DNA of 64,000 bases from Thermodesulfobacteriota bacterium (lineage in GTDB: Bacteria; Desulfobacterota; QYQD01). Positions within the stretch are counted from its first letter, which is position 1; every line of letters begins with the position of its first letter. Below, one piece after another: positions 38,751 through 52,053 of the stretch. The stretch spans positions 64,650 to 128,649 of the forward strand of contig JBFMAZ010000022.1 in the NCBI GenBank assembly GCA_040755415.1, given 5' to 3'. The translations under genes were made by a program, and so were the position numbers. A model generated the notes under the pieces. That model was not told where the DNA came from, made no database searches, and was given only the letters and a program-made list of their open reading frames with translations.

Positions 38751-39335
38751 ATGTCAGACTGGTCAAAAGGGAGAGTAAGGCGTAACGAGCGGTTGAGACT
38801 CAACCTTCACGAGAGCGTGCTTATCTGGTTCACGGGCCTCCCGGGAGCGGGCAAGACGACCCTAGCCTATGCACTGGATAGGTACTTATATAACAAGGGC
38901 TTTCACACCTATGCCCTGGATGACGACAATGTCGGCTACGGACTGTGCGGCAATCTCGGACTCAGCCCGGAGGACCACAAGGAAAGCGCCCGGAGGGTGG
39001 CCGAGGTAGGCCGGCTCTTTGTGGATGCCGGGATCATAACCATCGCCGCCTTCACCGCTCCCTATCGCGAAGACCGGAAGTCTGCCCGCAAACTATTCCG
39101 GCCCGGTGAATTTGTCGAGATCTATGTAAAATGCCCTGTGGCGGAATGCGAAAAAAGGGACGGCAAGGGATATTATGAAAAGGCCCGCTCCGGTCGCATC
39201 AAAGGATTTGCTGGCGTGGATTCTATTTACGAGGAACCGGAGAATCCTGAACTGATCCTGGAAACAGATAAGTACGATGTAAAGACCTGCTTAGAAAAGA
39301 TACTGACCTATCTGAGGAAAGAATTGATAATATAA
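38751..39335 (+). CDS. cysC: Adenylyl-sulfate (APS) kinase
   Basis: 194 aa. The P-loop is GLPGAGKTT. The sequence LDDDNVGYGLCGNLGLSPEDHKESARRVAEVGRLFVDAGIITIAAFTAPYREDR aligns closely with E. coli CysC ([54 protein letters not shown]). Confidence 0.93.
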   Translation: MSDWSKGRVRRNERLRLNLHESVLIWFTGLPGAGKTTLAYALDRYLYNKGFHTYALDDDNVGYGLCGNLGLSPEDHKESARRVAEVGRLFVDAGIITIAAFTAPYREDRKSARKLFRPGEFVEIYVKCPVAECEKRDGKGYYEKARSGRIKGFAGVDSIYEEPENPELILETDKYDVKTCLEKILTYLRKELII

Positions 39336-39510
39336 AACCTAAAAGGGCAATTCACCACAGAGAACACAGAGAACTACTTGAAATTATTATGTTTGAACCT
39401 ATTAAAATCTTTCTTTGTGCACTCTGTGGTTTTAAAATCGTTCAATTCAGGTAAAAAACATTTCCAAGCGGGAAAGATATTGATTACGGCAACTTTTTTG
39501 GCCGCCAGGG

Positions 39511-39768
39511 TTAAGGCTTTTTTAGAATATCATGGCTGCCGACTTTTCTCATGATATAGATGTCGCCTTCAATCTGAAAGGTAAAACGGTAAGAGTGGCT
39601 TACCCCGCCTTCCCAGATGTTCCTCGGATCTTGCATCTTTTTAATGTTTAGGGAAGGATGTTGTGAATCAGATAACAAAAACTCCAACTGTTTGTCGATT
39701 GCTTTCTGCACTGGCGGGGGCAGCTTACGGTAATCCCGGATAAAGTTTTTGGTAAAAACCAGCCTCAT
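39511..39768 (-). CDS. Type II toxin-antitoxin system RelE/ParE-family toxin
   Basis: 85 aa. The sequence MRLVFTKNFIRDYRKLPPPVQKAIDKQLEFLLSD...YRFTFQIEGDIYIMRKVGSHDIL matches the RelE/ParE fold pattern. It overlaps the antitoxin gene by 4 bp. Confidence 0.75.
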   Translation of the reverse strand: MRLVFTKNFIRDYRKLPPPVQKAIDKQLEFLLSDSQHPSLNIKKMQDPRNIWEGGVSHSYRFTFQIEGDIYIMRKVGSHDILKKP

Positions 39769-40049
39769 ATTTTAGTCTTCTTGAGGGCCCGGACGGCAGC
39801 TTTAATATTATCAAAAGGACCGACCACATCACCCTTGGCTATGTCTTTGTCCGCCTGTGCCTCCCCTTCCTGCCACTCTTTGGTGTAAAAATACTCCTGG
39901 TCGGGATGAACCAGCTTGACCGGCTTCATAATTATGTCGCCATCCTTATTCTCTACTTCCACATAATCCCCAACAGCAAGATTGAGCTTTCTGCGTAGAC
40001 CCTGTGGAATAGTAATCTGATAGTGTCTTTTGACCTTAACCAGCGGCAT
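39765..40049 (-). CDS. AbrB/MazE/SpoVT-family antitoxin (swapped-hairpin DNA-binding domain)
   Basis: 94 aa. The N-terminus KVKRHYQITIPQGLRRKLNLAVGDYVEVE is an SpoVT-AbrB domain. The gene sits upstream of the RelE-like gene and overlaps it. Confidence 0.75.
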   Translation of the reverse strand: MPLVKVKRHYQITIPQGLRRKLNLAVGDYVEVENKDGDIIMKPVKLVHPDQEYFYTKEWQEGEAQADKDIAKGDVVGPFDNIKAAVRALKKTKI

Positions 40050-40134
40050 AAAAATACCTCTTCCGTTCTTTACTATGACTTTATAAATTTATTAATTTTG
40101 TAATTTCATAATATCAGAGAGATAACTTTTGTCA

Positions 40135-40430
40135 AGCGCTGAAATTTTCTTTCTTTACTTTTTCCCCTGTTTTCATCAATAATGCGGAGAAAGAAACGAT
40201 ATTAAGGCGGGATTGTCGCAGCATGGAGGGGCGCTATAGAATTTATTTCCTTCTGTCAAACATTTTGCAACGTAAGAATCAACGTCCCCATCGGGGGGCC
40301 TCAACAGGCCCTTATGCAGGCGTACAGCGGATTATCCTGACTTTTTTAACAATGCCTTGAAAAATTATCTCAGCGTGATCCAGGGATGATCCAGGAGCGT
40401 GATCCGGGGACGTTGATTCTTACGTTGCAT
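40135..40430. repeat. Repeat element R, ending in a perfect 24-bp inverted repeat with a 116-nt spacer
   Basis: The body aataatgcggagaaagaaacgatattaaggcgggattgtcgcagcatggaggggcgctatagaatttatttccttctgtcaaacattttgcaacgtaagaatcaacgtcccc recurs split at 49977-50062 and 50738-50845. The inverted-repeat arms are tgcaacgtaagaatcaacgtcccc (40266-40289) and ggggacgttgattcttacgttgca (40406-40429). The spacer holds three copies of gcgtgatcc. Confidence 0.85.
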
Positions 40431-40457
40431 AACTCCATTCCCGCCTTCTATCCAATC

Positions 40458-40476
40458 AGCCATGTAGGGTGGGCTG
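40458..40476. repeat. 19-mer direct repeat agccatgtagggtgggctg, copy 1 of 3
   Basis: Exact copies lie at 40458, 49872 and 51960. Each sits at a boundary between gene blocks. Confidence 0.85.
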
Positions 40477-40533
40477 GTTTCCCAATAGACTCCCGGACTT
40501 CAAGGAGTGGCCAATTTCTGAACGGCGAATGAC

Positions 40534-50148: not shown

Positions 50149-50418
50149 ATGCAATTTGAATGGGACTCGAAGAAGGCCAAGCAGAATCTAACAAAGCATG
50201 GAGTTTCTTTTGATGAAGCGGTGACGGCATTCTATGATCCTCTATCGGCTACCTTTGATGACCCCGATCATTCAGAAAACGAGAAACGTTATATAACTAT
50301 AGGCTTCTCCTCTAAAGGACGGCTGCTTGTCGTTGCACATGCAGAGAGAGGAGGGAATATACGCATAATTAGCGCAAGATGTGCAACCGCGCATGAGAGG
50401 AAAAAACATGAAGGATAA
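50149..50418 (+). CDS. brnT: BrnT-family toxin (DUF497 ribonuclease toxin)
   Basis: 89 aa. [80 protein letters not shown] closely matches the BrnT consensus. Confidence 0.85.
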
Positions 50419-50674
50419 AAGAAGAGTACAAGGCAGTGATGAGTTACGTCCCGAGTACGATTTTGACTATTCAAAAGCCGTTCGCGGGAAGTATTACCGA
50501 CGATTGCTTGAGGAAGGGTCGAACGTGGCCGTACTTGATCCGGACATAGCCAAAGCCTTCCATGATTCCGCATCGGTGAATGAGGCCTTGAGATCACTAT
50601 TAGAACTGACCCGTTCCACGAAGCGCTTAACAAGTCGCTCAACCGGACGCGCAAAAAAACTGCGCACCGGTTAG
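50408..50674 (+). CDS. brnA: BrnA-family antitoxin
   Basis: [56 protein letters not shown] matches the BrnA pattern (EYDFs.a.rgky...v.ldpdv...F.ds..VNeaLR). Its start overlaps brnT by 11 bp. Confidence 0.8.
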
Positions 50675-50737
50675 CTTCATGTTGGACGTCAGATTATGCA
50701 CTATAACTCGAAGTATTCGTTCAGCAGTTCCCCATAT

Positions 50738-50845
50738 CGTTAAAAGGTTCGTTTACTGCCGCAGCATGGAGGGATGCTATAGAATTCATTTCCTCCTGTC
50801 AAACATTTTGCAACGTAAGAAACAACGTCCCTATCGGTCGTGCTC
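50738..50845. repeat. Repeat element R, right part (split copy) with one arm of the 24-bp inverted repeat
   Basis: tactgccgcagcatggagggatgctatagaattcatttcctcctgtcaaacattttgcaacgtaagaaacaacgtccc matches 40225-40289. It begins at gcagcatgga. Confidence 0.85.
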
Positions 50846-50914
50846 CCATTATTTAGGCTAGCCGTGACTTGCGGATGAACAACAAAAAAACAATTCAAAA
50901 TTAAAAGGATAGTC

Positions 50915-51946
50915 ATGAAACAGAGCAATGTTTCCCCGTCGATTTCAGAATGGCGGGAACTGTACGAACAAGCAGATCGGTTCAGGGACCTGAAACCCTG
51001 GACCTGGATGTCAGATGCCGATCTTTTTGGTGTGCAGAATCCTGAGGATATGGAAATCGGGTACTGTTGCGTACTGGGTGAACTGGGAGAGGTGCTGGCA
51101 CTGGTGGTTTATCAAGGCTCCGAAGGTCTGGCCGGCTATTTAAAAATGCAATCAGGTGAATTCGATTATGAGGATCCCTCGGCCATACATCTGCAAAAAT
51201 GCCTAATGGCGTCATTCGAGGACAGAAAACACCTGACCAAAGAGGACCTGCAAATAGTAAAGGCGCTCGACCTCAAGTACAGGGGGCACCAAGCCTGGCC
51301 GCAATTCAGGAGCTATCTGCCCGGCTATCTTCCCTGGGTTTTGACCAAAGGTGAGGTAAGCTTTCTAAAGGTGGCACTGGATCAGGCCATCGAGGTATGC
51401 ATCCGGTTTCGGGAGGACCCCGGTTTTCTTGATCCGCCGGAAGAAGGCGAAGTACTGGTAAGAACCCCCGTCCCTCGAGGCAGCAAGATAGAATGGCAAA
51501 ACATTTGGATAAGGCCTCCGGCTGCAAAGCCGCGTGTCTTGCCAACCATTTCAGTCGATGAAATCCGCGTTCAAAGGATACGCAAAAACAAAGTCCTCGG
51601 CAAAGGCACCTGGGAAATTGATTTCTTCTATTTTCCGGGGTCGGTTCGGGAAGGAGAACGACCATTTTCCCCGGTAGTGTTTGCGGTTGTTGATAAGACC
51701 ACCGGGCTGATTTTGCATAACTGGATGAATCCGCCATCGGAATTGTTTGCGGACTTCCAGACGAATATTCTGGATGTCTTGAGCCGAAGCAGAACTTTGC
51801 CGAGACAGGTACTGGTGGCAAAGAGTGAAATGGGCCAGATGTTACAGCCGATTATCGCGGGACTGGGCATTGAGTTGAAGATGACTCCGCATTTGAGGGG
51901 AGTGGAACGGGTCGAAAAGGAGATGTATGCGCACTTCACCTCCTGA
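50915..51946 (+). CDS. Hypothetical protein, 343 aa, no recognised family
   Basis: It has a long ORF with coding-like composition and an AG-rich region before the ATG. The protein appears soluble with no obvious motifs. It is bounded by the R element and the third 19-mer copy. Confidence 0.5.
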   Translation: MKQSNVSPSISEWRELYEQADRFRDLKPWTWMSDADLFGVQNPEDMEIGYCCVLGELGEVLALVVYQGSEGLAGYLKMQSGEFDYEDPSAIHLQKCLMASFEDRKHLTKEDLQIVKALDLKYRGHQAWPQFRSYLPGYLPWVLTKGEVSFLKVALDQAIEVCIRFREDPGFLDPPEEGEVLVRTPVPRGSKIEWQNIWIRPPAAKPRVLPTISVDEIRVQRIRKNKVLGKGTWEIDFFYFPGSVREGERPFSPVVFAVVDKTTGLILHNWMNPPSELFADFQTNILDVLSRSRTLPRQVLVAKSEMGQMLQPIIAGLGIELKMTPHLRGVERVEKEMYAHFTS

Positions 51947-51959
51947 AGATAAAAATCTT

Positions 51960-51978
51960 AGCCATGTAGGGTGGGCTG
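51960..51978. repeat. 19-mer direct repeat agccatgtagggtgggctg, copy 3 of 3
   Basis: An exact match. Confidence 0.85.
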
Positions 51979-52053
51979 AGCCCAAATATTCTGGAAGCAC
52001 AAAGCAGCCGGAAATAGCTGTGCAATAATGGGAGAGTCGTGTATAAAGGTTAA

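Follow-up and report, generated by a model that had tools for sequence, protein, structure and literature searches.

We analysed a 64-kb window, by which we mean the whole stretch of DNA under study (64,000 nucleotides of contig JBFMAZ010000022.1, from an uncultured member of the Thermodesulfobacteriota), and focused on the interval between cysC (adenylyl-sulfate kinase) and fdhA (formate dehydrogenase). This interval carries a duplicated cysC tail, an intact and a split copy of an intergenic module that we call R, two toxin-antitoxin (TA) modules, a seven-gene operon and three copies of a 19-mer (Table 1). Our best explanation, to which we give a probability of roughly 0.6, is that the interval is a chromosomal plasticity hotspot in which the repeats are recombination scars and not parts of a mobile element, and which would have been formed by a homologous crossover combined with an illegitimate join and then by recombination between repeats.

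The window was taken as the reference, and cysC homologues at 82-93% identity were traced to their contigs, which gave eight related loci for comparison at cysC (L003, L004, L005, L006/7, L024-26, L027 and L030). The left side of cysC is occupied in the window by housekeeping genes (M28 peptidase, YggT, DivIVA, MreB and others), and the synteny upstream of cysC was kept in L003-L006, L024 and L027. On the right side of the variable region, fdhA is followed by Wood-Ljungdahl genes, and fdhA was confirmed as the right flank in both loci that extend to it (L003 and L027). The match of these two loci to the window starts only at position 52658 (93% identity for L003 and 80% for L027), and all 13.3 kb from the cysC stop codon to the fdhA stop codon are therefore variable. 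At least seven different contents were found between the conserved flanks, and the interval changed in nearly every relative. A preliminary description of this DNA, made from the window alone, had proposed a hotspot bordering the 3' end of cysC; the retention of the left flank in all relatives and the polymorphism of the content among related loci agree with that proposal.

The minimal state was that of L027, in which cysC is followed by one DJ-1/PfpI gene and then by fdhA. Two other unoccupied sites were those of L024-26, in which cysC is followed by an intact R and then by genes for PLD-SNF2 and an Eco57I-like methylase, and L030, in which a full-length cysC is followed by the left part of R (RL), brnT, its partner and the right part of R (RR). 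In L003, cysC is followed by the TA module that we call TA1, RL, a 5'-deleted brnT with its partner, RR, NCAB2, HigBA, Gp49/HTH and then fdhA; in L004 and L005 it is followed by TA1, a 44-nt stump of R and HsdR-RadC-AlbA_2; and in L006/7, where the CysC protein is the same as that of L005, it is followed by RL fused to a remnant of AlbA_2. The cargo identified by Pfam in the relatives includes HsdR, RadC, PLD-SNF2, the Eco57I-like methylase, Mrr, NCAB2, AlbA_2, HigBA and Gp49/HTH. PADLOC gave no match among the window's own small proteins, and the largest cargo of the window is a metabolic/transport operon. The HsdR-RadC-AlbA_2 island was 99.6% identical between L004 (11759-16136) and L005 (11951-16328), and the 400 nt of cysC that precede the tail were only 93% identical, which indicates a recent horizontal exchange of the island.

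Comparison of the two cysC tails of the window, T1 in the resident gene and T2 detached from it, showed 77/89 identical positions (86.5%), the longest stretch free of mismatches being about 16 nt; a repeat search returned 87 nt at 87%, and the preliminary description had given 86 nt at about 85%. T2 begins exactly at CTGAACTGATCCTGGA, a block that is invariant in seven aligned cysC-end sequences. The 10,641 nt (39247-49887) that lie between the body of cysC and T2 comprise T1, TA1, the intact copy of R (R1), a hairpin region, the first 19-mer copy, the operon and the second 19-mer copy. L030 is colinear with window positions 49888-50838 (89% identity over 966 nt), and there this block is joined to a complete cysC. 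The T2-R2L-brnTA-R2R segment of the window, R2L and R2R being the halves of the split R and brnTA standing for brnT with its partner, is therefore a native-type cysC 3' region minus the gene body. The diverged second tail had been interpreted earlier as a possible displaced native end, and L030 supports a native-type end that was cut off from its gene; the identity matrix of the 89-nt tails is mosaic and does not settle which of the two window tails is the original. L005 also has a second cysC tail, of 138 nt and 92.8% identical to the resident tail, located about 8 kb downstream, past other cargo, and followed by an intact R. In this duplication the left boundary lies at position -138 of cysC (-89 in the window), the cargo is different and the 19-mer is absent.

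Comparison of the R copies showed 82% identity between R1 positions 40153-40225 and positions 49987-50059, and 91% identity between R1 positions 40214-40294 and positions 50757-50837. In L024-26 an intact R follows cysC directly, in L005 it follows the second tail, and a split R is present in L003, L006/7, L030 and the second copy of the window. Judged by these contexts, R is a conserved native module downstream of cysC and neither a dispersed nor a mobile repeat, and its earlier treatment as a repeat element was abandoned. Two other identities were tested for R and rejected. An RNAalifold consensus of six copies contained zero compensatory pairs, which spoke against a structured RNA; no Rfam match was obtained at the gathering threshold over the whole window, and a permissive threshold near R and the operon leader gave chance-level matches only. 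A small protein gene in the ATGGAGG.. frame, which at first seemed to be conserved, was rejected in turn, since substitutions were spread about equally over the three codon positions; without an excess at third positions R does not look protein-coding, and this frame has a 1-nt deletion in L024 and a CTG instead of the ATG in L005.

The junctions of the split R were the same in the window, L003 and L030 (..ATTATTGCRGYATGA on one side and ..CTGCCGYAGCATGG on the other), and the RL-side junction was also present in L006/7, where R breaks at the same point. The borders of the brnTA insert read ..TTGCAGTATGA and ..CCGCAGCATGGA, and an intact R has a single TCGCAGCATGGA. These identical junctions point to one old insertion of brnTA with an imperfect duplication of about 10 nt, so that a recent cassette event was not supported; the split itself, the insertion point, the flank duplication and BrnT (Pfam, 1.5e-29) of the preliminary description were confirmed. 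The second gene, named brnA there, encodes the 88-aa partner; it overlaps brnT by 11 nt, and its product matched no Pfam or NCBIfam family. The brnTA genes are 95-97% identical to those of L030, and the flanking T, RL and RR sequences are 84-85% identical. The pair at the first copy, TA1, is indeed a different one; its antitoxin matched AbrB/MazE (2.2e-11) and the match of the 85-aa partner to RelE/StbE was weak (E 0.0017, below the cut-off). TA1 was found at the same place in L003, L004 and L005 (85-99% amino acid identity) and was absent from L006/7, L024-26, L030 and L027. The TA pairs are present or absent independently of the cysC phylogeny, which supports the interchangeable cassettes described earlier.

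R1 was first reported to end in a perfect 24-bp inverted repeat. The arms are complementary at 24/24 positions on either side of a 116-nt spacer, and the DNA fold has a z score of -6.2; only positions 40143-40294 are conserved or repeated, and the spacer and right arm occur only in copy 1 and only in this genome. The 3' end of R1 forms the left arm; the right arm, which is private to this genome, carries the private T of R1 (GAATCAAC). As the inverted copy of the R end occurs once, the right arm was rejected as a recurring site. This 24-nt inverted copy with its private base may have been left by a fold-back event in the course of the same rearrangements.

The 19-mer AGCCATGTAGGGTGGGCTG occurs in three exact copies at 40458, 49872 and 51960, all on the plus strand and all noted previously; no further copy was found in the window at up to 3 mismatches (0.01 expected by chance). 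All three copies read ..CAT-GTAG-GGTGGGC.., a GTAG head followed by a left arm. The exact 19-mer was found in two copies in 596 Gb of representative genomes, both in one unrelated metagenome-assembled genome (MAG), and on 16 contigs of the Joint Genome Institute (JGI) metagenomes, three of which are coding coincidences. Most of the approximately 11 noncoding metagenome copies continue as AGCCATGTAGGGTGGGCTG[T/C]GCCCACC or a close variant (GGTGGGC-TGY-GCCCACC). The hairpin of the L001 copy had a z score of -2.6, one metagenome contig carried an inverted doublet and another carried three copies in 2.3 kb. Repetitive extragenic palindromes (REPs) associated with REP-associated Y1 transposases (RAYTs) include GTAGGGTGGGCTTcAGCCCACC of Haemophilus influenzae and GTAGGGTGGGTCTTGACCCACC of H. 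parasuis (Nunvar et al. 2010, PMC2817692); the head and arm of the 19-mer match these REPs, and its copies outside the window are nearly identical to them. The palindromic continuation and the published REPs identify the 19-mer as the 5' part of a REP-type element, comprising its head and left arm, and the earlier idea of an attachment (att) site used for tandem accretion was not supported for the same reason. No copy was found in about 123 kb of the relatives' loci.

The three REPs of the window differ in what follows the 19-mer. The degenerate right arm of copy a resembles variants on L009 and L021, and its hairpin is weak. The stem of copy c is 5 bp long (-4.7 kcal/mol) and is not better than those of shuffled sequences. 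Copy b is the only truncated REP; it lacks CCCA(A/C), has no hairpin and stops exactly at the cysC tail (aatCCTG/aactg), with CTG shared by both partners of the joint.

REP copies on other metagenome contigs were found near several kinds of genes. On L022 (4386-5117, the same as L017 566-1297), an unrelated contig, two inverted REP copies enclose a brnT remnant and a brnA-like gene; this was considered as a REPtron and rejected, as the gene between the inverted REPs is brnA-like and not a RAYT gene. On L013 a HEPN/MNT pair is 164 nt away from a REP copy, IS4-type transposases adjoin REP copies on L019 and L021 (both joined after ..GCCC), and on L023 a distance of 1.3 kb separates an IS110-type transposase from a REP copy. 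This proximity to transposases and TA genes agrees with what is known of REPs, which tend to mark DNA prone to insertions.

Searches for a mobilising system gave negative results. The scanned open reading frames (ORFs) of the window, nearly all those of at least 70 aa, contained no integrase, recombinase or transposase domain, as had been stated from the sequence for integrases and recombinases, and no recombinase gene was present in the precomputed Pfam lists for the visible parts of the islands of L003, L004, L005 and L024. We found no intI and no attC-type or XerC/D-type repeated sites at the cargo ends, no common motif among the cargo starts compared after R, and no tRNA or tmRNA gene at the border of the hotspot or elsewhere in the window. 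Megablast of positions 39250-52000 against phage and plasmid collections gave no match, and the IMG/VR viral contigs contained no copy of the 19-mer, the cysC tail or two R cores. The GC content was 0.41-0.44 for the TA modules, 0.48 for the operon and 0.50-0.53 for the core, without a sharp island signal.

The simplest and most likely course of events is as follows. An old insertion of brnTA split R in several lineages. One end of a later rearrangement would lie within cysC/R (or fdhA) homology and would be the product of a homologous crossover, and the other end would be an illegitimate join of a REP, within or just beside the predicted loop, to position -89 of cysC, with CTG shared. This may have occurred by homology-facilitated illegitimate recombination, with DNA that came in from a related strain, or equally by a Campbell-type single crossover of a circularised fragment with cysC-tail and R homology; the host recombination machinery would do the work in both cases. 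The direct T/R repeats could then recombine, leading to deletion or reinsertion of the block between them. The organization of L003 (cysC-TA1-RL-brnTA remnant-RR) is the one expected from a deletion between T/R repeats, and the alleles of the left part of R (RL) are shuffled with respect both to the cysC clade and to whether R is split or intact. This shuffling, the identity of brnTA compared with that of its flanks and the identity of the L004 and L005 islands are signs of frequent homologous exchange.

Homology-facilitated illegitimate recombination combines one homologous anchor with one joint at 3-10 nt of microhomology, and is said to have been described in natural transformation by de Vries and Wackernagel in 2002. 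The cysC-fdhA locus would resemble it in having one end in homology, with cysC/R or fdhA as a plausible anchor, the other at a joint that shares CTG only and foreign DNA beside a conserved anchor, and differs from it in that the segment is duplicated instead of replaced and in that the process is deduced from sequence alone.

Several observations weigh against a hotspot shaped by general recombination. The CTG microhomology at the joint of REP b and T2 is only 3 nt long, which is within chance, and it therefore carries little weight. Across six loci, R ends at exactly the same nucleotide and gives way to five or six different sequences, a pattern closer to a site-specific process than to random illegitimate recombination; the end of R reads ..CAACNNCCCCATCGG, and ..CCCCATCGG stands immediately before the junction. 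Partial cysC-tail duplications arose at least two times, a hint of a recurrent mechanism, and all three REPs lie inside the variable locus, within 11.5 kb of the 64 kb, in one orientation. REP copy number, RAYT genes and a trans-acting integrase were surveyed within the window only, and the contig comes from a single MAG assembly.

The repeats can also be read in terms of site-specific integration, in which an island with a tyrosine or serine recombinase, since lost or acting in trans, would have integrated at an att site in the 3' end of cysC and provided a replacement tail, T1 and T2 being attL and attR. Direct repeats of a gene end do bracket a 10.6-kb block, a like duplication exists in L005, T2 starts exactly at an invariant block and empty sites occur in relatives. 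We nevertheless consider this unlikely. Neither the window nor the visible parts of five island versions contain a recombinase gene, and the boundary of the duplication is not the same in the window and in L005 (-89 and -138), so that a fixed att site in cysC was not supported. The duplication also takes in 150 nt of R past the gene, more than an att site requires, the tails are only 86.5% identical and share no long exact core, and neither the tail nor R has a copy in the viral contigs. It is quite improbable that R is a dedicated landing pad with an outward promoter, its 3' end being a site-specific insertion point for cargo of one or several genes, the recombinase being located elsewhere and the REPs serving as break or join points. 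R contains an invariant TGCTATAGAAT that resembles an extended -10 element, with only 9/12 matches in a promoter scan, and the gene visible after R was on the strand of R in 5/5 cases. If this were true, R would be an integron-like platform without an integrase in cis, in an uncultured anaerobe, and the nucleotide-exact junction at its end, with nearly lineage-specific cargo, is one aspect that could gain interest.

Two other explanations centre on the REPs. The first joint partner could have been cut by a RAYT at the CT of ..GGGCT/G in REP b and joined to the CT in cysC (aatcCT/gaactg), which would have captured or relocated DNA. RAYTs cleave single-stranded DNA at CT dinucleotides beside REPs and carry out strand transfer (PMC8266576), a CT is present at the breakpoint in both partners, and REP copies of other metagenome contigs lie beside insertion sequence transposases and TA genes. 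The reported cleavage sites are located 5' or 3' of the hairpin and not in its loop (PMC8266576), the window has no RAYT gene, a CT dinucleotide is too short to serve as evidence and no precedent is known for the capture of a 10-kb block, which leaves this explanation with very little credit. Hardly any credit was given to the 19-mer as the att core of two tandem elements, the operon (40477-49871) and the T2-brnTA-DUF7309 block (49891-51959), with the native right arm of the REP kept after the last copy only. Three exact direct copies bracket two unrelated blocks, the clearest right arm is behind the last copy and every copy is within the variable locus; on the other hand, the 19-mer is a generic REP that published REP tables list and that has its full hairpin in unrelated metagenomes, CCCAAT is also found behind copy a, neither block has a recombinase and the second block is the native downstream region of cysC. 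In addition, homology of the operon block to L028 (74-90% identity, segment by segment, over window positions 40528-49776) ends 51 nt and 95 nt before the flanking 19-mers. An assembly artefact, in which two strain alleles (one of the TA1-R-operon type and one of the RL-brnTA-RR type) were concatenated in the MAG contig, was equally hard to credit. The window comes from a single 159.6-kb contig of an NCBI metagenome-assembled genome with locus tags AB1487_024xx, and both halves resemble alternative alleles found separately in relatives. A chimera is unlikely because the joint of REP b and T2 shares 3 nt only, and no long k-mer that could cause mis-joining, and because an independent JGI contig (L005, 138 kb) has the same kind of duplication; the T1/T2 and R1/R2 pairs are, moreover, only 80-91% identical.

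Table 1. Positions of the features of the cysC-fdhA interval and of the dispersed repeats in the 64-kb window
Feature	Position	Strand	Description
cysC	38751-39335	+	Adenylyl-sulfate kinase; Pfam APS_kinase 1.7e-56; left anchor of the variable region
T1	39247-39335	+	Last 89 nt of cysC; tail copy in the resident gene
TA1 module	39336-40134	-	RelE-like, 85 aa, 39511-39768; AbrB/MazE antitoxin, 39765-40049; promoter-like site, 40135-40108
R1 (intact R)	40143-40294	+	Conserved non-coding module of ~150 nt, natively 3' of cysC
Inverted repeat	40266-40429		Arms 40266-40289 and 40406-40429
REP copy a	40458-40488	+	19-mer, then gtttCCCAAT (degenerate right arm after a 4-nt insertion); 58 nt beyond the ABC ATPase stop codon
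Seven-gene operon	40534-49348	-	BcrAD-type activase, double-cubane-cluster reductase, TonB-dependent receptor, radical SAM protein, periplasmic binding protein, FecCD permease, ABC ATPase
REP copy b	49872-49890	+	Ends after ..GGGCTG; adjoins T2
T2	49888-49976	+	Detached cysC 3' end; last 29 codons and stop codon; frame open, no gene body
R2L (left half of R)	49977-50062	+	Break point shared with L003, L006/7 and L030
brnT, 88-aa partner and flanks	50063-50756	+	brnT, 50149-50418; partner, 50408-50674; inserted in R with a ~10-nt imperfect duplication
R2R (right half of R)	50757-50840	+	
DUF7309/DUF6930 gene	50915-51946	+	Cargo after R in copy 2; found at this place in no relative
REP copy c	51960-51990	+	19-mer and aGCCCAAAT; hairpin TGGGC-TGA-GCCCA
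193-aa gene	52054-52635	+	Part of the variable region; widespread uncharacterised family
fdhA	52653-56768	-	Formate dehydrogenase; conserved right anchor; one gene with an in-frame TGA
Dispersed repeats (CCCCCTTTTTCAAAGGGGG and AAATCCGAAATCCGAAG types)	4171-4630, 7304-7387, 20052-20134, 26541-26827, 32835-33041, 38335-38471, 57884-58048, 63087-63245		

The 9.4 kb between the first two 19-mers consist of the minus-strand operon. On the one visible flank, the neighbours of the homologous operon of L028, the nearest relative of the block that was found, are Fer4, selB and DUF1847, and not cysC. Judging from these comparisons, the operon block has been brought to this place, and the 19-mers are not demonstrably its ends. 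The operon leader (49540-49700, minus strand) folds with a z score of -6.8 relative to shuffled sequences, and its structure includes a terminator-like hairpin and a long one (GGCUACCAG..CUGGUAGCC). L028 retains this leader at 89% identity and L029 retains part of it (80% over 64 nt); it has no counterpart in Rfam and could represent a riboswitch or attenuator not yet described. In L028 (9540-9760), we observed a REPIN-like inverted doublet of a related REP (GTAGGTTGGGTTGAGCGG ... CCGCTTAACCCAACCTTCTAC) within a larger inverted repeat, about 100 nt 3' of the ABC ATPase gene of the homologous operon.

The in-frame TGA of fdhA (54288-54290) is at the selenocysteine position of formate dehydrogenases, and the homologue in L027 is annotated as a single gene of 1372 aa. 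The 193-aa gene beside fdhA has no Pfam or NCBIfam match. Its large family gave 706 homologues at E <= 1e-10, with identities of mostly 60-69%, and in some sources these carry the wrong label of Hfq or ribosomal protein S1; the gene was rejected as a piece of the conserved frame, since it has no homology to the DJ-1 gene at the same place in L027.

A second accessory block is present at window positions 7495-19879, with type I restriction-modification genes (HsdM, HsdS, a RhuM/Fic protein and HsdR) and genes for a YgjP-like peptidase and SbcCD-like proteins; in L027 the gene order upstream of cysC differs and no block of this type is visible. The window also starts with a tandem array (171-243) of a 14-nt unit (CTATGAGCTATGAA-like) and contains two further families of dispersed intergenic repeats. 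One copy of the CCCCCTTTTTCAAAGGGGG type lies shortly upstream of cysC, and the AAATCCGAAATCCGAAG type has arms of 120-140 nt in direct and inverted orientation. Both families look like MITE-type (miniature inverted-repeat transposable element) or REP-type elements of this genome.

Comparison of the 19-mers with REPs, bacterial interspersed mosaic elements (BIMEs) and REP doublets forming hairpins (REPINs) showed the same GTAG head and GGTGGGC left arm, and copies located elsewhere have the full hairpin and inverted doublets; the window differs in showing no more than three copies, which all point the same way and whose right arms are weak or missing, and in that no RAYT gene is seen in it (PMC2817692, PMC8266576). 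Hotspots flanked by core genes have been described as cDHS1/2 in Pseudomonas aeruginosa (PMC10250203) and in E. coli (PMC10121019); many of these sites have no mobility genes, and exchange by flanking homologous recombination has been proposed for them (PMC10250203, PMC10121019). The cysC-fdhA interval shares with them the fixed flanking core genes, the highly variable content, which in the relatives includes defence and TA genes, and the many sites without a mobility gene. It differs by its host, an uncultured member of the Thermodesulfobacteriota, by its anchors, cysC and fdhA, by the metabolic/transport operon that it carries, by its explicit scars (a duplicated gene tail and intergenic module) and by the lack of a tRNA or tmRNA gene at its border.

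Islands inserted by tyrosine integrases at the 3' end of genes or tRNAs also have a duplicated gene 3' end, with one copy detached and the copies flanking the insert; here there is no integrase in the scanned ORFs, the boundary varies, and the repeats are diverged and run into an intergenic module. Integron cassette arrays and the pdif modules of Acinetobacter plasmids likewise contain small TA and single-gene cargo at recurrent junctions behind a conserved module, and the cargo beside R is co-oriented as in these systems; the locus differs from them in having no intI, no attC-type or XerC/D-type sites and no repeated boundary motif. It offers a worked example, beyond the usual models, of a core-gene-flanked hotspot built and reshuffled without a recombinase of its own, the ingredients being a conserved intergenic module and a gene tail that provide homology, a breakpoint with REP-type hairpins and a persistent cargo of TA pairs, and it is useful for the annotation of MAGs because duplicated gene tails are easily taken for att sites. 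The locus thus belongs to the known kind of hotspot flanked by core genes, found here in an uncultured lineage and with unusually legible scars, and is not a new kind of system.

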